Below are positions 917-56,451 of a stretch of DNA of 64,000 nt, piece by piece. Origin of the DNA: Candidatus Yanofskybacteria bacterium RIFCSPHIGHO2_01_FULL_41_26 (GTDB lineage: Bacteria; Patescibacteriota; Minisyncoccia; 2-02-FULL-40-12; GWA2-44-9). Under the pieces are notes generated by a model, which made no database searches, was not told the DNA's origin, and saw only the letters and a list, made by a program, of their open reading frames with translations. The position numbers were made by a program, and so were the translations under genes. Position 1 is the stretch's first letter; each line of letters opens with the position of its first letter. The stretch is taken from the NCBI GenBank assembly GCA_001794055.1, contig MGJB01000015.1, positions 4,264 to 68,263 on the forward strand. The letters are read 5' to 3'.

Positions 917-1276
917 CTAAATTTTAATTCCCCCCTTTTTTAATCCCTCGGCAACTGCTTTAACTCTGCCATGAAATTTAAATCCTCCTCTGTCAAATAC
1001 CGCTTCATTAATTCCCAACTCTTTTGCTTTCTCAGTAAGCATGTCCCCGATTGCACTAGCTTTGGCTGTTTTATCACCTTTCATTTTACTTTTCTTGGCT
1101 GAAACCACCTTACTATTCAATATAGTTTTTCCCGTTGAGTCATCGATAAATTGAACAAAAATATGCCTATTGCTTTTGAAAACAGAAACCCTAGGCCTTT
1201 CTTTAGTGCCTATTATCTTAGCGCGTACTCTACGATGACGCATGGCCCTATGTTGTTGTTTCGATTTGGAATTCAT
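917..1276 (-). CDS. rplR: 50S ribosomal protein L18
   Basis: 119 aa; RPRVSVFKSNRHIFVQFIDD motif typical of L18; operon position. Confidence 0.93.
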   Translation of the reverse strand: MNSKSKQQHRAMRHRRVRAKIIGTKERPRVSVFKSNRHIFVQFIDDSTGKTILNSKVVSAKKSKMKGDKTAKASAIGDMLTEKAKELGINEAVFDRGGFKFHGRVKAVAEGLKKGGIKI

Positions 1277-1331
1277 TTTTAGATTTTAGCTTTTAGGAAA
1301 TTTCCTAGAAGCTAGCAGCTAATGCCTATAC

Positions 1332-1886
1332 CTATCCGGCGGCAACCGCTTTTTTGCCGGCTTTTCTTTTGATAACTTCGCCCTGATATCTAATTCCGCT
1401 TCCTTTATAAGGTTCCGGCTTTCTCCATGACCTTATTTCTGCAGCTGTTTGGCCGACCAATTCATTGTCAATGCCCTGAATTCTGACAACATTTTTCTCA
1501 GCTTTAAAAATTATTCCTTCCGGAGCTTTAATGGTTACTGGATGCGAAAATCCCAAACCCATTTCTAAATCATTTCCTTTAACAACCGCCTTGTATCCCA
1601 CTCCTTGAAGTTCTAAAACAATTTCGAATCCTTCGGTAACTCCTTTTATCATGTTTTTAATGAGGGCACTAGCCAATCCCCAAGTTGCTCTATTCTCAAT
1701 GTTTTTGGGAATCACTTTTAAACTTTCTCCTTCAATATTTAAATCTATGTTTCCAGGAATAAATCTTTTTAATTCGCCTTTTGGTCCCTTAATTGAAATG
1801 AAATTGCCATCCATTTTTATTTGGACATCTTTTAATATGATCATCGGTTTTTTTCCAATTTTACTCATATGTTTACCAAACTTCAC
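1332..1886 (-). CDS. rplF: 50S ribosomal protein L6
   Basis: 184 aa; two-domain L6-like sequence, operon position between S8 and L18. Confidence 0.93.
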   Translation of the reverse strand: MKFGKHMSKIGKKPMIILKDVQIKMDGNFISIKGPKGELKRFIPGNIDLNIEGESLKVIPKNIENRATWGLASALIKNMIKGVTEGFEIVLELQGVGYKAVVKGNDLEMGLGFSHPVTIKAPEGIIFKAEKNVVRIQGIDNELVGQTAAEIRSWRKPEPYKGSGIRYQGEVIKRKAGKKAVAAG

Positions 1887-2277
1887 AAATTATTTCTCCT
1901 CCAAGGCCAGATTTTTTAGCTTCTTTTGAATTCATAACTCCTTTAGGTGTTGAAATTATAGCCAAGCCATATCCGGAACGGACCAGTTTAATATCTTTGG
2001 CTTTAATATACATTCGTCGTGAAGGATGACTGACAATTTTAACGCCGCTTAAGACTCCTTGATCATCACGATATTTCAGTGTGAGCTGAAGATACTCATG
2101 TTCGGCTTTTTTTGCTTTTTTATTTTTTCTTTCAACTTCAGAAACATATCCCGCTTCCTTTAAAATATTAGCAATCTTAAATTTAACCTTAGAAAAAGGC
2201 ATCGTCACTTGCTCACCTTTTACAGCTTGAGCATTCTTTATTCTTATTAACATGTCTGATATCGGATGGTTTACCAT
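1873..2277 (-). CDS. rpsH: 30S ribosomal protein S8
   Basis: 134 aa; N-term [16 protein letters not shown] is S8 signature. Confidence 0.95.
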
Positions 2278-2456
2278 GATGATTTTTTAACTCCGGGTAA
2301 GTGGCCGGCACTGGCCAATTCCCGAAAATGTATTCTGCACAAACCAAAACTCCTCATATATCCGCCTTTTCTTCCGCACATAAAACATCTTCGAACCATC
2401 CGGGTTGAATATTTAGGCTTTTTGTTTGATCTAGCAATTGTTGATTTTTTAGGCAT
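2271..2456 (-). CDS. rpsZ: 30S ribosomal protein S14 type Z (zinc-binding)
   Basis: 61 aa; CxxC...C/H pattern ([20 protein letters not shown]) of short Zn-type S14. Confidence 0.93.
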
Positions 2457-2459
2457 GCT

Positions 2460-2572
2460 CGGAGTGGGCTCCCATATTAGTCGCCCGCGAGGGGCCCCAT
2501 TCTCTTCTTCCCTGTCTTACTGCTAATCGAGAAGTAGAATGGGGACACGCGTCGGCGACTAATGGGAACTCT
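2460..2572. other. GC-rich imperfect extended hairpin in rplE-rpsZ intergenic spacer
   Basis: ctcccatattagtcgcc ... ggcgactaatgggaac outer arms and ccattctcttcttc ... gagaagtagaatgg inner arms are reverse complements. Confidence 0.5.
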
Positions 2573-2574
2573 AT

Positions 2575-3138
2575 TCACAACTGGAGCGAAGCTCCAGCCG
2601 GTTTTTTAATTGGTAATCCCATTTGTTTTAAAAGCTCAATTCCTTTTTCCCTATTTTTGGCCGTTGTAACCACAGTTACCTCCAGTCCGAATACGTCTTT
2701 CATGTTTTCGTAATTTATCTCCGGAAAAATGCTTGATTCTTTAATACCGAAATTCAAGTTTCCCATTTTATCAAAATTTTTGGCGTCTATCCCCCTAAAA
2801 TCTCTCGATCTTGGAAGAGCAATCGCAATCAATCTGTCCAAAAAATCATACATCCTCTTGCCTCTAAGCGTCACTGCAATTCCAACATTGACTCCTTCTC
2901 GCAACTTGAAACCGGAAATTGATTTCTTGGCTTTTTTGAAAACCGGCTTTTGTCCGACAATAAGCGTCAACTCTTTTGCTATTCTTTCAGCTGTTTTTTC
3001 GTCTTTGCCAAGTCTTCCAATACCGGTATTTACAACGACTTTCTCTATCTTTGGAATTGCCATTACATTCTTAATTCCAAAAGCTTTCTGCATGGCAGGA
3101 ATAACTGTTTTTCTATATTTTTCTTGTAATCTTGGCAT
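2575..3138 (-). CDS. rplE: 50S ribosomal protein L5
   Basis: 187 aa; L5-like (MPRLQEKY..., NYENMKDVFGLEV), operon position. Confidence 0.95.
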   Translation of the reverse strand: MPRLQEKYRKTVIPAMQKAFGIKNVMAIPKIEKVVVNTGIGRLGKDEKTAERIAKELTLIVGQKPVFKKAKKSISGFKLREGVNVGIAVTLRGKRMYDFLDRLIAIALPRSRDFRGIDAKNFDKMGNLNFGIKESSIFPEINYENMKDVFGLEVTVVTTAKNREKGIELLKQMGLPIKKPAGASLQL

Positions 3139-3152
3139 ATAATTACGAGGTA

Positions 3153-3461
3153 TTATTGTACCTCATTTTTACACTTTTTACAAATTCTTACCTTGTTCTC
3201 TCCTTCGAATTTATATCCAATCCTGGTCATTTTTCCGCAGGATTTGCAGACCAAGGCTACGCTCGATGCGCTTACTGCTCTCTCTTTGCTTATAATCTGA
3301 CCCTTCTGACCCTGCTTTTTGGCTCTAACATTCTTTTTTATCAAATTCAAACCTTCGACAACAACTCTATCGATGCTTGGTATAACCATGGAAATCTTTC
3401 CCGTCTTTCCTCGGTCTTTTCCATTCAGCATTATTACATTGTCTCCTTTTCGTAATTTCAT
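3153..3461 (-). CDS. rplX: 50S ribosomal protein L24 with C-terminal zinc-ribbon extension
   Basis: 102 aa; KOW N-term (KGDNVIMLNGKDRGKTGKI) plus C-term CKSCGK...CKKCK four-Cys motif. Confidence 0.92.
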   Translation of the reverse strand: MKLRKGDNVIMLNGKDRGKTGKISMVIPSIDRVVVEGLNLIKKNVRAKKQGQKGQIISKERAVSASSVALVCKSCGKMTRIGYKFEGENKVRICKKCKNEVQ

Positions 3462-3469
3462 AAAGTTGT

Positions 3470-3835
3470 TTATACTAATTCTTCGGCTAGTGACGCTATC
3501 GTGCCATATCCTCTTTCTTTAATTTCTCTTGGTATCGGCCCAAAAATTCTTCCACCCTTTGGCTCTTTTCCGTCTAAAATAACGACCGCATTATCATCAA
3601 ACCTGATATAAGTACCGTCTTTTCTTCGGAATGGTTTTCTTTGTCTGACCACGACTGCCCTTAAAACTTCTTTCTTTTTGACTAGCTTCCTTGGCTCGGC
3701 CACTTTCACCGACACAACGACAATATCTCCAAGTTGGGCATATCGATGTCTTGATCCACCAAGAACCTTAAAGACCCCAACCTTCTTGGCTCCTGAATTA
3801 TCCGCGACATTTACAATTGATCTAAGCTGTAACAT
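3470..3835 (-). CDS. rplN: 50S ribosomal protein L14
   Basis: 121 aa; MLQLRSIVNVADNSGAKK is L14 N-terminus. Confidence 0.96.
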   Translation of the reverse strand: MLQLRSIVNVADNSGAKKVGVFKVLGGSRHRYAQLGDIVVVSVKVAEPRKLVKKKEVLRAVVVRQRKPFRRKDGTYIRFDDNAVVILDGKEPKGGRIFGPIPREIKERGYGTIASLAEELV

Positions 3836-8185: not shown

Positions 8186-8818
8186 TTATTGTGATTGAAT
8201 TATTAATAATTGTCCTCTGTTTCCGGGAACCGCACCCTTAACCGCAAGCAATCCGTTTTTAGCATCAACTCTCACGATTTGTAATCCTCTTGTTGTTACT
8301 TTATCAGAACCCATTCGTCCGGCCATTCTCATTCCTTTCAATGTATGCTGGGGGAATCTTTGGCCGATTGATCCTCCGTGTCTTGCAACATGATGATGTC
8401 CGTGACTGTGAGGCATACCTGAAAAACCATGTCTTTTCATAACCCCCTGAAAACCTTTTCCTTTTGACATGCCCGTAATTTTAACTTTGTCTCCGATAGC
8501 AAAAATAGAAACATCAAGCTTGTCTCCCACCTTCGCTGAAACAGCTTCGGCGGGCAATCCAACTTTTCCGCCAATTCTGAATTCTTTCAGATGCTGGAAA
8601 TTGCCGAGATTTCTAAAGTGTCCTCTTTGGGGTTTATTTATATTTTTAATTTTCTTGGTTCCCGTTCCCACTTGAACCGCTTCGTAGCCGTCTTTATCTT
8701 TAGTTCTAACTTGAGTCACAACATTCGATTCAATTTCCACAACTGTAACCGGGACGACTTTTCCGTCTTCCTCAAAAACCTGCGTCATTCCCAATTTTTT
8801 ACCTAATATGAATTTCAT
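8186..8818 (-). CDS. rplC: 50S ribosomal protein L3
   Basis: 210 aa; L3 motifs (GMTQVFEEDGKVVPVTVVE, KGKGFQGVMKRHGF). Confidence 0.95.
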   Translation of the reverse strand: MKFILGKKLGMTQVFEEDGKVVPVTVVEIESNVVTQVRTKDKDGYEAVQVGTGTKKIKNINKPQRGHFRNLGNFQHLKEFRIGGKVGLPAEAVSAKVGDKLDVSIFAIGDKVKITGMSKGKGFQGVMKRHGFSGMPHSHGHHHVARHGGSIGQRFPQHTLKGMRMAGRMGSDKVTTRGLQIVRVDAKNGLLAVKGAVPGNRGQLLIIQSQ

Positions 8819-8869
8819 GATTGGTTAGCAAAGCGTTTGTCATTGAAAACATATCAGTCCTTAGACACG

Positions 8870-8960
8870 TAGAATTTCCCAGCGAGAAATTCTACTCGGC
8901 TTCGGCTCGCTCATCCCTCACTGCGTTCGGGATACCTTGCCCGCTCGCCTGCAGATGGTC
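8870..8960 (-). repeat. Family-A GC-rich two-hairpin repeat (copy 1, inverted orientation)
   Basis: Reverse complement reads gaccatctgcaggcgagcgggcaagg-[hairpin atccc/gggat]-gagcgagccgaagccgag-[hairpin tagaatttc/gaaattcta]; same architecture at 14087 and 33990. Confidence 0.75.
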
Positions 8961-9176
8961 TATAGACTGACATGTTTTCAATTCCATAAATTTCCAACAA
9001 TAAAACCCAGATTTAGCTGGGGCTCATGTGTCCTGCTAAATTTATTTAACTTATTCGATTGTGATTTTTCTTAAAACCACTTATTTCAATTAAGGTTTTA
9101 ACACGGCAAGTGAATTTTTACAAACCGGTCCCTTCGACAAGCTCAGGGTTAACCGGATAAATTCTACTGTCTATAT

Positions 9177-9256
9177 TACCACCGCTTTTAGCGGGGCCCC
9201 GCCCAAGGCGGTGGCTACCTTATTCCTCTCCACTGTTTCCAATGAAGAGAGTAAAG
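9177..9256. repeat. Family-B structured element (two short hairpins + truncated long hairpin), copy A
   Basis: accaccgcttttagcggggccccgcccaaggcggtggctaccttattcctctc...; paralogous to 9797-9896. Confidence 0.7.
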
Positions 9257-9268
9257 AAATAATTTTGA

Positions 9269-9472
9269 TTAAAGTACTTCCAGGAAACTCCTTGCTTCTT
9301 TTAAAATCGCTTGTGCTTTTTTTAACTTTTCTATTCCGCCTTCTTGAATTGGCTCCGTTCCCTTTGTAGCTCTTTGCAACGATTGCTCAACAACTTTAAC
9401 ATCTTCTCTTATCTGAGCGACTATGTTTTCTCCTAAATATTCTTCTCTTTCAATTTTTGGTTCTTGTTCCAT
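9269..9472 (-). CDS. Hypothetical small charged helical protein (67 aa)
   Basis: ORF only; E/K-rich, no recognised domain. Confidence 0.4.
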   Translation of the reverse strand: MEQEPKIEREEYLGENIVAQIREDVKVVEQSLQRATKGTEPIQEGGIEKLKKAQAILKEARSFLEVL

Positions 9473-9548: not shown

Positions 9549-9782
9549 TTACAAATTTTTGGTTAATTCTTCAATCTTTTTAAGTCTGTTAACCATATGA
9601 GCTTTTATCTCTCTTACCTCCTCGGAATCCACATCTTTTCCCTCTTTAAGTGTTGCAATTAATAAATCGCTATCTTTCCCAAAACTGGCCACTTCCTGAT
9701 CTATAATCCCCCTGCTTGTTTCACAATTTCTGATTTGCTCTTGTTTATCTGATATTAAATCTTTTTTCTTTTCTCTGTTCAT
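9549..9782 (-). CDS. Hypothetical small charged protein (77 aa)
   Basis: ORF only; 13-nt tandem duplication of start region (atgaacagagaac x2) just upstream. Confidence 0.4.
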   Translation of the reverse strand: MNREKKKDLISDKQEQIRNCETSRGIIDQEVASFGKDSDLLIATLKEGKDVDSEEVREIKAHMVNRLKKIEELTKNL

Positions 9783-9796
9783 GTTCTCTGTTCATA

Positions 9797-9896
9797 TTAC
9801 CACCGTTTTTAACGGGGCCCCGCCAAAGGCGGTGGCTACCTTATTCTCTCGTCCTAGTGAGTTCTATCGAACTAAGGCGAGAAGTAAGGGGGTAAG
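9797..9896. repeat. Family-B structured element, copy B (two hairpins + full long hairpin)
   Basis: accaccgtttttaacggggccccgccaaaggcggtggctaccttattctctcgtcctagtgagttctatcgaactaaggcgagaagtaagggggtaag; hairpin 1 covaries vs copy A (ccgc/gcgg -> ccgt/acgg). Confidence 0.75.
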
Positions 9897-10190
9897 TTAT
9901 TTTTCTGTCTGTGTAAGTTTGGCTACCTCTCTAAGAGATTCGTTTGCAGAATATACCTGATCATTATCTATTATTTTAGCAACTTCTTTTAAGATGACAC
10001 CACTAAACTTTATAGCTCCCACATCCTCTTTTTTTATTCCCGATACTGCCTGGGATAGTTCCTTTAATTCCTTAACCCTTGCCTCAAGTTTGGCTATTGA
10101 TTCGGCTATTGCCTCGTTACCCTCTTTAAACTCTCTGGCATCTTTTTGTTCAACCGATTCTTGTACTATTGTTGGATTTTCTATACTCAT
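9897..10190 (-). CDS. Hypothetical small protein starting MSIENPT (97 aa), paralog of 10572..10826
   Basis: Shares N-terminal 7 aa, upstream leader and downstream hairpin with 10572..10826; middle diverged. Confidence 0.45.
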   Translation of the reverse strand: MSIENPTIVQESVEQKDAREFKEGNEAIAESIAKLEARVKELKELSQAVSGIKKEDVGAIKFSGVILKEVAKIIDNDQVYSANESLREVAKLTQTEK

Positions 10191-10202: not shown

Positions 10203-10262
10203 TTTACATTTTTAACTCTATATCGACCCCTGATGGCAGATTCAAGTTCATAAGAGCATCAA
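10203..10262 (-). pseudogene. Duplicated fragment encoding the last 20 codons of S10 ([20 protein letters not shown])
   Basis: Translation identical to rpsJ C-terminus at 10847-10909 with 9 nucleotide differences, all synonymous. Confidence 0.8.
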
Positions 10263-10472
10263 TTATTTTGACGCTATATTTAACGCGTCCCAAACTTTCT
10301 TCATTTGGACTTTAAGCTGGTCAACTTCCGCGCGAACATCAAGCTTTTTCTCAACTTCGTCAAATCGTCTGGAAACCATGCCTGCTAAATTAGCAACCTC
10401 ATCTTTAAGGTCTTCTTTAGTGGCCAATTTGCCTAATTGTTTGTCAAAATATTCTTTGGTAAGGTCTGACAT
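10263..10472 (-). CDS. Hypothetical small coiled-coil protein (69 aa)
   Basis: ORF only; heptad-like K/E/L pattern; stop overlaps start of duplicated S10 tail. Confidence 0.4.
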   Translation of the reverse strand: MSDLTKEYFDKQLGKLATKEDLKDEVANLAGMVSRRFDEVEKKLDVRAEVDQLKVQMKKVWDALNIASK

Positions 10473-10512
10473 GGTGGTTAAATATTATCTTGTTTAAACT
10501 GTTTTGTCTATC

Positions 10513-10570
10513 ACCTTATTCTCTCGTCCTAGTGAGTTCTATCGAACTAAGGCGAGAAGTAAGGGGGTAA
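10513..10570. repeat. Family-B long hairpin only, copy C
   Basis: accttattctctcgtcctagtgagttctatcgaactaaggcgagaagtaagggggtaa identical to part of copy B. Confidence 0.75.
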
Positions 10571-10571
10571 T

Positions 10572-10826
10572 TTATTTTTCAACAACTTCACCCAATAAAT
10601 TCGATGACTCTTCTATTAAATTTGCTGCTTGGCTCATACTATCGTTAATGCGCCCCAACTTAACAAGATCCTGTTCTGATAAATTTTCAAAATCACCCTT
10701 ATCAAAGATTTCTTTTAGGCGACTTAAGCAGGCCCTATTGCGATCAATTCTCAAAACCATGTCTCCTCTAAGCCTTTCACTCAAGTTAGTTTCTACTATT
10801 TTTTGTGTTGGATTTTCTATGCTCAT
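10572..10826 (-). CDS. Hypothetical small protein starting MSIENPT (84 aa)
   Basis: See 9897..10190; leader upstream overlaps true rpsJ 3' end. Confidence 0.45.
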   Translation of the reverse strand: MSIENPTQKIVETNLSERLRGDMVLRIDRNRACLSRLKEIFDKGDFENLSEQDLVKLGRINDSMSQAANLIEESSNLLGEVVEK

Positions 10827-10846
10827 ATTTTTATTTTCTATTAAAT

Positions 10847-11173
10847 TTACATTTTTAATTCTATATCCACACCTGATGGTAAATTTAGATTCATCAATGC
10901 GTCTATAATCTTCGGTGTCGGTGAATCTATATCTATGATTCTCTTGTGGGTACGCATTTCAAACTGCTCTCTAGAATTCTTGTCAATGAATGCCGACCGA
11001 TTTACTGTATACTTGGCAATCTCTGTCGGCAATGGCACAGGTCCAATCGGATGTCCGCCATATCTTTCAATGGTTTCAACAATCTGGGCAGCGGACTTGT
11101 CTATGATCTTATTGTCATAAGCCCGGAGCTTAATCCGTATTCTCTGTTTTATTTCTGTCGTTTTTTTAGCCAT
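10847..11173 (-). CDS. rpsJ: 30S ribosomal protein S10
   Basis: S10 core ([22 protein letters not shown]...); start placed at [14 protein letters not shown] rather than upstream MFFSSK. Confidence 0.93.
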
Positions 11174-11194
11174 TTTACTTGAAAAGAACATTTT

Positions 11195-11221
11195 GAAGCC
11201 CCGACTACCTGTCGGGGCTTC
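11195..11221. other. Perfect 11-bp stem hairpin in tuf-rpsJ spacer
   Basis: gaagccccgac-tacct-gtcggggcttc read directly. Confidence 0.7.
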
Positions 11222-11224
11222 AGT

Positions 11225-12427
11225 TTATTTATTAATTTTGGTCACGGCTCCGGCGCCAACAGTCTTACCACCTTCTCTGATGGCAAATCTCTGCTTTTCT
11301 TCCATGGCGATAGGGGCAATCAATTGAACTTTCAAATTTGCAGTATCTCCCGGCATGACCATTTCAGTTCCTTCCGGCAATAAGACTTCTCCGGTAACAT
11401 CGGTGGTTCGGAAATAGAATTGAGGTTTGTAACCCTTGAAGAATGGGGTATGTCTGCCACCTTCTTCTTTTGTTAAAACATATATTTCTGCCTCAAAATC
11501 GGTATGCGGGGTAATCGTACCCGGCTTGGCAAGCACTTGGCCTCTTTCTATGTCTTCTTTCTTGGTACCTCTCAAAAGTATTCCGGCATTGTCTCCGGCC
11601 AAACCTTCGTCTAATTGCTTATTAAACATTTCGATACCGGTGACAACAGTCTTCGCTGTCGGTTTAATTCCAACTATTTCAATTTCTTCGTTTAATTTAA
11701 CTTTCCCTCTTTCAATTCTTCCGGTTACAACAGTGCCTCTTCCTTCAATTGAAAAGATGTCTTCAATAGGCATAAGGAAGGGTTTATCGGTATCTCGGAC
11801 CGGATCCGGAAAGAAAGTATCCATTGCATTCATCAATTCCTTGATCGGCTTGGCATATTGATCATCTTTTGATTTAGATTCAAGGGCTTTCAATCCAGAA
11901 CCTCTGATAATCGGGGTTTTATCTCCGGGGAACTGATATTTATTCAAGAGCTCTCTGATTTCGGCTTCAACCAAATCAACCATTTCCGGATCATCAACCA
12001 TATCCACCTTGTTGAGGAATACGATTATATTAGGAACGCCAACCTGTCTGGCAAGCAAAATGTGCTCTCTTGTTTGAGGCATCGGGCCATCAGTGGCAGC
12101 GACAACCAATACAGCTCCATCCATCTGGGCAGCACCCGTGATCATATTTTTAATGTAATCAGCGTGGCCAGGAGCATCAACATGAGCGTAGTGGCGCTTG
12201 GGTGTCTCGTACTCGGAGTGGTGTAAGGCAATTGTAATACCTCTGGCTTTTTCTTCAGGAGCATTATCAATCTGATCTACTCCTTCCTCTCGGGCAGAAT
12301 AACCCTCGTCCTTCATTAAATTTAATACATGCAAAATACCCGCCGTTAGCGTAGTTTTACCGTGGTCAACGTGACCGATTGTGCCGACATTCAAGTGCAG
12401 CTTGTTTCTTTCAAATTTGCCTGCCAT
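11225..12427 (-). CDS. tuf: Elongation factor Tu
   Basis: 400 aa; [22 protein letters not shown] GTPase motifs. Confidence 0.98.
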
Positions 12428-12504: not shown

Positions 12505-12819
12505 TTAGTCAACTGTTATCATCTTCTCTTCCTTTTCTATCTCGCTCTTTAGGGCCAAAATGTCTTTGTTTATCCTTTCCAGTATCTCAAGTTCGTTTTC
12601 AGGAAGAGCTGGTTTTGCGGGCATGGACCGGTCTTCGGAGTGACTTATTCCGTTGGTAACGGCATGATTTATCTTTATTTCCTTCTCTTTACCCCCCAAA
12701 ATTAAATCCTTATACATCTCATAACTTAGGATAGCAAAAGATGGCTCGCCATTATCCAACACCAAAACCGCCGTAGAGTGCTTCACCAGTTTTTTGAGTT
12801 CATCTACATTCATTGACAA
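12505..12819 (-). CDS. Phd/YefM-like antitoxin-domain protein with C-terminal extension (orphan)
   Basis: N-terminal AVLVLDNGEPSFAILSYEMYKDL matches Phd/YefM fold pattern; no adjacent toxin ORF. Confidence 0.5.
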   Translation of the reverse strand: MSMNVDELKKLVKHSTAVLVLDNGEPSFAILSYEMYKDLILGGKEKEIKINHAVTNGISHSEDRSMPAKPALPENELEILERINKDILALKSEIEKEEKMITVD

Positions 12820-12996
12820 ATTATTTGTTATATGTAATAATTGCTATATCCCGATAATGAGCACTGGGAGTAGGGTTTGGGGGAAGCCCCGACCGCCTTT
12901 GATAACCAGCCCATCCTTATTGGGATTTTTTGTTTCTACAACGATACAAATCTATATTATAGTATTAAAATATCAAAAAAAATGCAAACAAACGCT

Positions 12997-13131
12997 CCCC
13001 AGCCACATACCCCCGACTCGACCGATAGTCCTCGGCTTCCTGCGAGCCTCGGCTGTCTTCATGCTCAGCCCCTCACCAAGCACCAAGCTTCGGGGCCTGC
13101 GCAAGTTCTCCCTGGGAGTATGTGGCTGGGG
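12997..13131. repeat. GC-rich structured element closed by perfect 14-bp inverted repeat
   Basis: ccccagccacatac (12997-13010) pairs with gtatgtggctgggg (13118-13131); interior contains gcccc...ggggc hairpin and cgaagccgag-like motif in reverse. Confidence 0.6.
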
Positions 13132-13207
13132 GCTCAATTATTTTTCAAAAGAAACAAAAAAAGCGCCTTGGATGTCTTACGACAATCCTCGGCGCTGACT
13201 CAATTAA

Positions 13208-13906
13208 TTAGTCTTGGCCACGACTGACCTTTTTCCTCAAATCTCGATTTTGCTCAAAACGTTTTTCCCAAGTTTCAAAAAATGTCCATTTCGAAGAAGC
13301 TGAAACATTTGCCTCATTAATAATCGTCTCTAGATCATGTCTAAGTTCCAGTGCTACAGCCCCTCGATAACGCTGCCTATCGGAAATAATTTGTTTATAA
13401 AGGGCACAAATAGCTGCAGAAAGTTCTTGGATCTTTGCCTTATCATCCAAACGTTCTCTCCCCAATTCATCAATCCGGTCAAGCATCGCCTGAAGCGACG
13501 GATAGGTATTAATAAACTGAAGAGCTACTTCTACTTTTAGACCTTGAAGAACTTGTTCCAGGCAAACCCAGTCACCAGTCTGCTCACGACGCCAACTTCC
13601 GGCTATTCTCCAAAAGTCGGCTGCCGGACCATAGATCGCGCTTCGCCGACGAAATGGACCACGGTTAATCTCAATCACCGAACCATCGACACAAGACCAA
13701 TCAATCGCCCTTAACCTATTTGGACAAGAATAAACTTGTAAACCATAGCATGGATGATGTTGCCTATAATATATTTTCCGAAAACCCTTGAGCCAGCGGA
13801 AAAACTTTCTCCATTCATCCTTAAACAACAAGACAAGAACAGAGACTAACGCAAGCACACTTAAAACAACGAGTGCCCAAAATGACACGAAAAGAAAGCT
13901 ACTCAT
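13208..13906 (-). CDS. Hypothetical membrane-anchored protein (232 aa)
   Basis: N-terminal TM helix; no recognised domain; GC-richer than surroundings. Confidence 0.5.
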   Translation of the reverse strand: MSSFLFVSFWALVVLSVLALVSVLVLLFKDEWRKFFRWLKGFRKIYYRQHHPCYGLQVYSCPNRLRAIDWSCVDGSVIEINRGPFRRRSAIYGPAADFWRIAGSWRREQTGDWVCLEQVLQGLKVEVALQFINTYPSLQAMLDRIDELGRERLDDKAKIQELSAAICALYKQIISDRQRYRGAVALELRHDLETIINEANVSASSKWTFFETWEKRFEQNRDLRKKVSRGQD

Positions 13907-55017: not shown

Positions 55018-55371
55018 TCAGAAAAAGTTGTTCCAGATTGCTTTGACTATATAAAGTCCAATAAGCAGAGTCGACATCATAAGAAGATAAAGTCCCAAAG
55101 ACAAAACACCTCTTTTATCATCTGCCAGCGTTGCCCCTTGTAATTTTCCAACAATGATAAGGGCTAGACTGACGATTGCCACAATGTATAAAGTAAGACC
55201 TACCTCTGGTGAATACATGTTGCTGTTGCAACTGGAAAAGGGCTTTATGCCTCTAGGAACCATAAAACCCGCTACCAGGTGCAACCTTTCGGTCGCAATA
55301 TGTGGGTTTCCCCACATAACGCAGTGCATGCCCTGATAACGGGATTTATATGCACTGCGATTTGATGCCAT
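55018..55371 (-). CDS. Hypothetical membrane protein (117 aa) flanked by ~30-nt direct repeats
   Basis: Repeats attataaccaa...tctgggcatcagaaaa at 54996-55026 and 55419-55472. Confidence 0.45.
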   Translation of the reverse strand: MASNRSAYKSRYQGMHCVMWGNPHIATERLHLVAGFMVPRGIKPFSSCNSNMYSPEVGLTLYIVAIVSLALIIVGKLQGATLADDKRGVLSLGLYLLMMSTLLIGLYIVKAIWNNFF

Positions 55372-56451
55372 GCCCCACAGTATCTTGTCGGGTTGTAGGC
55401 GGTTAAATTGTTAAATACATTATAACCAAATAGGGTAATTTTTCAATGAGTGGAATCTGGGCATCAGAAAATAAAATACTTGAACTTATTGCCCAAAAAT
55501 GTTATAATGTAAGAGTAGGCTTCTGGGAATACTCCCAAGGGGTCTGTGAGAACTCAAAAACGATAGTAGGTTGCACTAGCCCATCAGAGTTTCATTGGTT
55601 AAGCACTGATTGCTAGTATTATTTCTCCCATTGGGTTAGGCAAAAATCCAATGAAACTCCCCAGTGAGAGGAATAATGAAAGTAATCAGTGTTTTTATTT
55701 GGTTCAGCAAGGGTTCTGATGAAGATAAATTAATATTCCAAAATAGAGCAATCGAGCAGGGCAACAGTTCAACTACTGACCCTGGAAACTAAGGAGCATA
55801 AGACCTTACTACAATCCTTAGGGCGTGTTTTATAGGGTTTTGAGCAGAGAGGACTACAGATGAGAAACTCTCAAAGGCGGTATCGGGCACCTATCGCCAA
55901 GACTTGAAATAAAAGGCGGCAAAATGGAATGCTGGTTAGCCAGTAATTCAAATTAGCAAACTTATATAGTTACTAAAGCGAATCTGCAGTAGGCACACAC
56001 GACATTAAAGAAGGAGTGATGTGTGGGGCAGGATAAGGAGGAAACTACAAAGCATCTGATTATATTATTTAATTATTTTAATTCTGCATGACGACAGTAT
56101 AGGATTGGCATCTGGAATGTGGGCTTTTTTAAGAGCTGGACATGCCCGAGTCGCTTCGCAGGCTCCAGCCCTGAAGCGAAGCCCTACGAGGGCAGTCAGC
56201 GAGGACGTGTCCGAGATGAGACAGCCCGCCACATGTAGAGGGCGGCTTTTATATCACGACTCAACCTTATGCTGACGACATACTACCATTTGGAGTTTAA
56301 CTACTAGAACAAAACCTATCATAGGTTGCGAAATGTATGCCCAATATGGCTACTACTATAAACCTCGTATAAACAAAGAAAATAAGCGCATTTTTACTGA
56401 GTTTCTTCCGTAATATTGGGTTGTCATCTATTTGAATAGTTTCTTGGTGAG

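Follow-up and report, generated by a model that had tools for sequence, protein, structure and literature searches.

Foreign DNA may become integrated into the genomes of transformable bacteria through one homologous anchor, the other end being joined at a microhomology of 3–10 bp (PMC6382021, citing de Vries & Wackernagel 2002). Further cases of such homology-facilitated illegitimate recombination (HFIR) in natural transformation are those of Prudhomme 2002 and of Meier & Wackernagel 2003, as summarised in PMC6382021. Here we describe a locus with a comparable pattern next to a ribosomal protein gene of an uncultured Candidatus Yanofskybacteria. The window, by which we mean the whole analysed stretch of 64,000 nt, includes the beginning of this organism's S10 ribosomal operon. 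Between rpsJ and rplC it holds, in addition to the 3' end of the working rpsJ gene (tail A), a second rpsJ 3' end (tail B). We consider it likely that tail B is a young non-coding relic of a second rpsJ allele, which arose by recombination between co-occurring Candidatus Yanofskybacteria lineages.

All features that were mapped are located on the minus strand and are listed in Table 1. The small ORFs have the database entries OGM98424-6 and OGN22371-3, which derive from MAGs of the Rifle aquifer. The rpsJ gene was taken in its 114-aa form; the ATG at 11170 is a possible alternative as the conserved start, and an exact look-up with a 107-aa form of S10 gave no match. A 68-nt repeat is present at 10513-10580 and at 9838-9905, the two copies being 99% identical.

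Table 1. Features at the start of the S10 operon, from tuf to rplC (positions in the window)
Feature	Position	Strand	Remarks
tuf	11225-12427	minus	adjoins rpsJ
block S (rpsJ, ORF84, hairpin H1, ORF69)	10264-11209	minus	100% identical to contig L007
rpsJ (ribosomal protein S10), working gene	10847-11191	minus	Pfam Ribosomal_S10, E=9.6e-32
tail A	10847-10912	minus	last 21 codons and stop of the working rpsJ
ORF84, orphan small ORF	10572-10826	minus	starts with MSIENPT, ends with EK-stop
hairpin H1	10514-10564	minus	copy of the conserved element H
ORF69	10263-10472	minus	small coiled-coil-like family, common in the rpsJ-rplC spacers of relatives
putative junction microhomology AAAATA	10264-10269	minus	last 6 nt of block S and first 6 nt of the rpsJ similarity
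tail B	10204-10269	minus	last 21 codons and stop of a second rpsJ allele; no rpsJ body upstream
ORF97, orphan small ORF	9897-10190	minus	first 7 codons (MSIENPT) and last 2 codons (EK-stop) as in ORF84
hairpin H2	9839-9889	minus	
palindromic element P1, GC-rich	9799-9836	minus	directly after H2
ORF77, small ORF	9549-9782	minus	no family match
ORF67, small ORF	9269-9472	minus	starts with MEQEPKIE
hairpin H3 (9218-9256), then palindrome P2 (9178-9215)	9178-9256	minus	H3 is a variant of H with a compensatory inner stem
structured leader upstream of rplC, 348 nt	8819-9166	minus	partly conserved in relatives
rplC (L3), next ribosomal gene of the S10 operon	8186-8818	minus	

The register of the two tails is offset by 643 nt, and tail B ends with a TAA stop codon at 10204-10206. 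In a codon alignment the encoded peptides are identical over the 21 sense codons and the stop. At the nucleotide level 15 of 66 positions differ, and all 15 differences are synonymous. An earlier note on this DNA had described the copy as 20 codons at 10203-10262 which differ from rpsJ at nine of 60 nucleotides, all of them synonymously. The alignment confirms a second S10 tail on the minus strand with a peptide identical to that of rpsJ, and also that the differences are exclusively synonymous; the extent of the copy has to be corrected to 10204-10269 (21 codons plus stop) and the counts to 14 of 60 or 15 of 66. The codon-level realignment and dN/dS estimate which that note had proposed yielded no non-synonymous difference: according to Nei-Gojobori there are 15 differences at 12.8 synonymous sites, i.e. 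saturation, and none at 50.2 non-synonymous sites. When 15 substitutions were placed at random, not one of 200,000 placements was all-synonymous; the pattern is highly non-random.

At the 5' side the similarity of the two tails breaks off sharply at the Lys codon of the tail, with none of 11 upstream codons matching. At the 3' side it extends across the spacer between the genes and into the following ORF, of which the first seven codons are included (repeat D6, 93%). The longest exact run common to both tail regions has 15 nt and extends across the stop codon (TTAAAAATGTAAATT). A stop closes the reading frame of tail B 33 codons upstream, and no ATG precedes the tail in this frame; an in-frame TTG is located 27 codons before the stop. 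A diversity-generating retroelement was rejected as the source of the differences, which are of the types T/A, C/T, G/C and T/C in both directions, and no reverse transcriptase is encoded in the locus.

A degenerate pattern for the tail peptide led to 30 metagenome loci, 29 of which represent other lineages of the same clade. Compared to the window, these 29 relatives are 85–90% identical in tuf and 70–90% in the rpsJ body at the nucleotide level. The 21-residue tail peptide is identical in 30 out of 30 metagenomic rpsJ genes, the tails of the relatives being only 73–92% identical in nucleotides to tails A and B. Thus, any two working rpsJ genes of this clade show tails which differ only synonymously, and selection on copy B is not needed as an explanation. 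The search among relatives for an rpsJ allele matching the copy, another suggestion of the earlier note, led to similar alleles. Tail B has its best matches in the working tails of L112 and L113 (92.4%) and of L128 and L133 (89.4%), compared with 77% to tail A; the best match of tail A among the relatives reaches 86%. Since tail B is nearer to the rpsJ of other lineages than to tail A, it is not a duplicate which diverged within this genome. A diverged in-genome pseudogene fragment was rejected on this account, and also because none of the 15 differences is non-synonymous.

No second or decayed fragment of an S10 tail or body was found in the spacers of the 29 relatives. The same is true for second tails among the best 80 S10 loci in a scan with one genome per species. 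The closest S10 in these 80 loci is only 80–81% identical, hence they do not provide a parental haplotype.

The copy might be constrained for a separate reason, as had also been proposed in the earlier note. The nucleotides of tail B could, for instance, belong to an initiation or regulatory region of ORF97 and have kept the peptide reading by accident. ORF97 begins 13 nt behind tail B in a placement parallel to that of ORF84, about 20 nt behind tail A, and the starts of these ORFs are conserved in nucleotides. However, A and B differ at almost all of their synonymous sites, as do the relatives among themselves, and a constraint at the nucleotide level would not spare synonymous positions alone. 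The substitution pattern therefore contradicts this possibility, which appears most improbable to us. The variation of synonymous tail sites across the 30 relatives, none of the other lineages keeping a second tail, argues against a separate constraint in general.

The second line of evidence for recombination comes from the region upstream of tail B. The metagenomic contig L007 has a tuf gene which is 86.7–86.9% identical to that of the window, with mismatches mostly at third codon positions. The last mismatch is at 11210. From 11209 to 10264 there is not a single mismatch in 946 bp, which cover rpsJ, ORF84, H1 and ORF69. The identity thus switches from about 87% to 100% at 11210/11209, within an alignable tuf-rpsJ spacer, as is characteristic for a homologous end. 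At the opposite end both L007, assembled by MEGAHIT, and L009, from another assembler, terminate at 10264 with ...GCGTCAAAATA. Where an assembly graph forks, contigs characteristically break off at the last base common to the branches. This suggests that a co-occurring haplotype has the block in common with the window and differs from 10263 onward; the position of the putative fork at 10264 is taken from these contig ends. Two side observations belong here. L009 has a 156-bp gap inside tuf (11304-11459). In L010 (ERZ27254756 k141_398965) a third tuf allele, about 88% identical up to 11309, is joined to sequence identical to the window across the junction. With a third tuf allele on the recombinant block, further exchange or some chimerism of short contigs is likely.

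Tail B begins to resemble rpsJ alleles at 10269, and the five nucleotides ahead of this position, GCGTC, are unlike the CACCG of rpsJ alleles. As block S ends at 10264 and the rpsJ similarity starts at 10269, the two parents would overlap by 6 nt, AAAATA, a length within the range of 3–10 bp for a microhomology end. The contig ends of L007 and L009 stand here in place of the first parent, called haplotype X in the following. The homologues of ORF69 in nine relatives end with ALNIKS-stop or KN-stop, and ORF69 of the window with ALNIASK-stop, its stop codon spanning the junction. In the ORF69 protein cluster, which has a single member, there was no native ORF69 with a different end. A heptanucleotide found at both ends of block S, TCAAAAT, was considered as target-site duplication and rejected, as the rpsJ alleles have CCGAAAAT at this place. 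The junction (10255-10275, minus strand) is furthermore a quasi-palindrome, AGCGUCAA-AAUAA-UUGAUGCU, which could form an 8-bp RNA stem with the ORF69 stop codon in the loop. Its left arm comes from the ORF69 side and its right arm from the rpsJ relic. The structure could be fortuitous or could have played a part in the joining.

If the join were an artefact, two variants of a mixed population would have been concatenated or strain variation collapsed. Several strains co-occur, and contigs do break in this region: one lacks 675 bp and another one diverges inside ORF97. However, no fewer than 12 distinct contigs, obtained from different samples and with different assemblers, cross the ORF69/tail B junction, as do two NCBI MAGs, overall with 99.9–100% identity and at the junction with 100%. 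The join shares 6 nt, and the longest exact repeat between the units, 15 nt, is below any assembly k-mer, which disfavours k-mer misjoining. An assembly chimera is therefore extremely unlikely, and judged from the contigs an artefactual arrangement of tail B is disfavoured. Exact-protein context look-ups with S10, ORF97, ORF69, ORF84, ORF67 and ORF77 gave contexts of the window type except for L006/L145, L008 and L007/L009.

The deviating contigs are of different kinds. L006/L145 (ERZ28563591 scaffold_24276) is the one without the 675 bp between H1 and H2, which comprise ORF69, tail B and ORF97, and is about 100% identical elsewhere. Either the two hairpin repeats, which are 99% identical, recombined and the part between them was deleted, or the assembly collapsed here. 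L008/L124 (JGI Ga0209343_10101856) follows the window to 9967 inside ORF97 and diverges from locus position 1860. The sequence beyond is unrelated and absent elsewhere in the window; it contributes a C-terminus resembling a solute-binding protein to a 222-aa fusion ORF. L008/L124 is probably a chimeric contig.

Tails A and B bracket the segment ORF84-H1-ORF69 as direct repeats 643 nt apart. This arrangement could also have been generated by a small integrating element which targets the rpsJ 3' end and carries a copy of it, the tails then being attL and attR. The 15-nt exact run across the stop codon could act as the crossover core of such an element. Yet, no integrase or recombinase is located between the repeats, and ORF84 and ORF69 have no significant Pfam match. 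The block shared with L007 spans the whole rpsJ up to 11209 instead of reaching from tail to tail. A scan of viral contigs with the degenerate tail pattern gave 0 matches, thus no attP borne by a phage or element was found, and second tails are missing in the 29 relatives and the best 80 genome loci, many of which have spacer insertions. We regard an integrating element as very unlikely.

It is also conceivable that tail B originated by tandem duplication within the genome and has been kept because it is translated, either from the in-frame TTG or by a −1 shift of ribosomes from ORF69 on CAAAAUAA. The frame of the tail is indeed the −1 frame of ORF69, a Lys-tRNA on AAA could re-pair with an overlapping AAA while the stop codon is in the A site, and the 8-bp hairpin at the junction holds this stop codon in its loop. 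However, UCAAAAUAA deviates from the canonical heptamer X XXY YYZ, the slip site lies within the hairpin and not ahead of it, and the tail frame is closed upstream and lacks an ATG. Moreover, the ORF69 relatives end without a tail, copy B is nearer to foreign rpsJ alleles than to copy A, and the arrangement is confined to one lineage. A duplicate maintained by translation is hence barely credible. Translation of the tail as an S10-like C-terminal tag on ORF69 is even less likely than the dedicated cassette site discussed below. Programmed −1 frameshifting as such was rejected, there being no canonical heptamer, no downstream structure and no tail in the ORF69 of relatives.

We return to recombination between two lineages as the likely origin of tail B. 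Haplotype X would have had the order rpsJ(tail A)-ORF84-H-ORF69, followed by further sequence, and haplotype Y the order rpsJ(tail B)-ORF97-H-P-ORF77-ORF67-H-P-leader-rplC. In the Y parent, the rpsJ body would have been joined to AAAATAATTGATGCTCTTATGAACTTG. In a recent event, the end of ORF69 from X would have become joined to codon 87 of the Y rpsJ across the 6-nt AAAATA, and the second crossover would have occurred in ordinary homologous sequence, a pattern that corresponds to HFIR. One complete rpsJ would thereby have been kept, and the last 66 nt of the other would have remained as a stump before ORF97. The synonymous differences would be older than the join, from a time when each tail was still the end of a functional rpsJ, on which purifying selection acted strongly in the respective lineage, and the stump would be too young for decay. 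With 0 differences in 946 bp, less than 0.1 substitutions are expected in a stump of 66 nt, so that its intactness needs no selection. This estimate of the age presupposes that block S and the junction are equally old.

X-type and Y-type layouts both occur among the relatives. L128 has the order rpsJ-ORF-H-ORF69-like, and L133 the order rpsJ-ORF-ORF69-like, with no complete hairpin in the H scan. The Y type is represented by L112 with rpsJ-ORF-H-leader-rplC. The parents themselves are less accessible. Haplotype X is seen up to the junction in L007 and L009, and its continuation beyond 10264 was not recovered in the exact-protein context look-ups. For haplotype Y, an intact rpsJ with tail B followed by ORF97 was not found in context look-ups or protein search; rpsJ alleles similar to tail B and layouts similar to Y are present among the relatives, though.

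The direction of transfer can be judged only tentatively. In no case was ORF97 preceded by an intact rpsJ, and homologues of it were absent wherever searched, which slightly favours an incoming block that overwrote a resident rpsJ. We lean, therefore, towards block S as the incoming part. That the Y part came in instead is possible, if somewhat doubtful. The earlier note had explained the copy by a distal cassette which was acquired by recombination from a diverged relative. Its core is supported by our data, in that tail B would stem from the working rpsJ of a diverged lineage, judged by the 92.4% identity to L112/L113 and the shared 946-bp block. The distal cassette as the acquired part finds less support; the data slightly favour the proximal block in this role, with tail B as the stump of the resident gene. 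One feature goes beyond a simple history with two parents. The first seven codons of ORF84 and ORF97 (93%) and the hairpins H1 and H2 (99%) are far more alike than the adjacent tails (77%), so gene conversion or a constraint at the nucleotide level has to be added.

The region in which these events took place is itself variable. The spacer between rpsJ and rplC has 240–1,150 bp in the relatives versus 2,029 bp in the window, and its content differs in almost every lineage. Searches among 5.8 billion proteins for homologues of ORF84 and ORF97 returned self-matches alone. The two ORFs resemble each other in their first seven residues, in the last two codons and in the following hairpin; the bodies are unrelated. 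The MEQEPKIE start of ORF67 recurs in unrelated spacer ORFs of relatives (9 listed, including L114, L120, L126, L131, L133 and L135). Where the DNA was inspected (L114, L120, L126, L133 and the window), the respective sequence, ATGGAACAAGAACCAAAAATTGAA at 9449-9472, is almost invariant in nucleotides. As synonymous sites in the neighbouring rpsJ are saturated, the constraint on this sequence is probably at the RNA or DNA level. In L120 (Ga0209542_10243070) we noticed two ORF69-like paralogues of 82 and 99 aa within one spacer, with a small ORF and an H copy between them, from which it follows that stacking of spacer units has happened more than once.

These properties led us to consider that the spacer is a dedicated hypervariable cassette site, within what is the cell's most conserved operon, at which orphan ORFs are swapped between lineages. 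The left arm of a cassette would be the rpsJ end plus the ORF start, the right arm the hairpin H, and tail B would be the left arm of a stacked cassette. In agreement with this, ORF84 and ORF97 are both orphans with common ends around unrelated bodies, H is duplicated wherever extra ORFs occur (window, L128, L120), and there is hardly a relative without a spacer content of its own. However, no recombinase was identified, and ORF69 and tail B are joined at a microhomology and not at H or another repeat. Furthermore, H shows covariation of the RNA type and a GAAA loop and is situated in the rplC leader; these traits are more in keeping with a regulatory RNA than with a site of recombination. Ordinary homologous recombination in the conserved flanks is sufficient to explain the variation. 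A dedicated cassette site is thus unlikely.

Hairpin H (CCUUACUUCUCGCC...GGACGAGAGAAUAAGG) consists of a bulged stem and a variable apical helix, often closed by GAAA. It is found in nearly all relatives (L112-L141), behind rpsJ or the small ORFs and before the rplC leader, and compensatory changes occur in seven of its 14 pairs. Its function may lie in the regulation or the RNA processing of the L3-L4 operon. P1 and P2 are two 92% identical copies of a GC-rich palindrome (CCACCGCC..GGCGGGGCCCCG..GCGGTGG). The insertion point is exactly between ...AAUAAGGUAG and UAAUA, after H, and the same insert is present in the relative L127; it looks like a small mobile palindromic element. The rplC leader (8819-9166) has a minimum free energy of −109.9 kcal/mol, with z=−6.3 compared to shuffled sequence. 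It contains inverted arms of 25 nt, at 8842-8866 and 8958-8982, around a GC-rich insert, and its partial matches in relatives are 74–94% identical. H, P and the leader had no match in Rfam, either at the gathering threshold or at a permissive one.

Some observations were made outside this spacer or in more distant organisms. In four other Patescibacteria (L029, L037, L038 and L041) rpsJ and rplC are 3.5–4.7 kb apart. Most of the non-CPR bacteria that were compared have fewer than about 130 bp at this place, and a few of them have 180–230 bp. In Patescibacteria, the break in the operon behind rpsJ may generally be a hotspot for insertions. The spacer between fusA and tuf is variable, too. In the window (12505-13906) it holds an ORF of 232 aa and one of 104 aa, the latter with a weak match to Phd/YefM antitoxins, and in L007 (L007 positions 994-3675) an 893-aa restriction-modification enzyme of the MmeI type instead. 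At 55281-55401 on the minus strand we found a full-length match to the LOOT RNA family (RF03000), with 66.5 bits against a gathering score of 46.4.

The relic is most likely an ordinary recombination scar, one more case of a known type. As such, tail B would be the clean natural trace of an exchange of DNA that took place very recently between two uncultured lineages of Candidatus Yanofskybacteria (Patescibacteria/CPR) with about 13% divergence. With one homologous and one microhomology junction beside an essential ribosomal gene, the S10 operon would not be recombinationally inert here, which calls for caution when rpsJ and tuf serve as single-copy markers for the phylogeny of these bins. In this clade, the stretch between rpsJ and rplC can be regarded as a variable island in which small orphan ORFs precede a structured RNA that is conserved and absent from Rfam. 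These surroundings, the orphan small ORFs and the conserved covarying hairpin upstream of rplC, are of greater interest than the relic.

Among the described systems, gene ends duplicated as attL and attR where islands or prophages have integrated, known for the 3' ends of tRNA, tmRNA and protein genes, resemble the window in that a displaced, intact-looking 3' end is found shortly downstream and in that the two copies differ through their separate lineage origin. Unlike in such islands, there is no integrase here, the intervening segment has 643 bp, the whole rpsJ is part of the shared block, and the join appears to be a microhomology inside the last codons of ORF69 and not a common core. Mosaic ribosomal protein and tuf genes share with the window the sharp switches of identity from about 87% to 100% along tuf-rpsJ, as in L007 and L010. 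In contrast to these, one end of the exchange would be illegitimate in the window, and a fragment of a gene would have stayed behind in place of a clean exchange of alleles. HFIR matches with respect to both ends, one homologous crossover and one join at 3–10 bp of microhomology, for which the 6-nt AAAATA would account. It also matches in that DNA from a relative of about 13% divergence would have been added beside an essential gene which stayed intact. HFIR has been seen experimentally, whereas the case in the window is reconstructed from metagenome contigs of an uncultured organism with one parental haplotype not found; the combination of its two putative ends would be that of HFIR.
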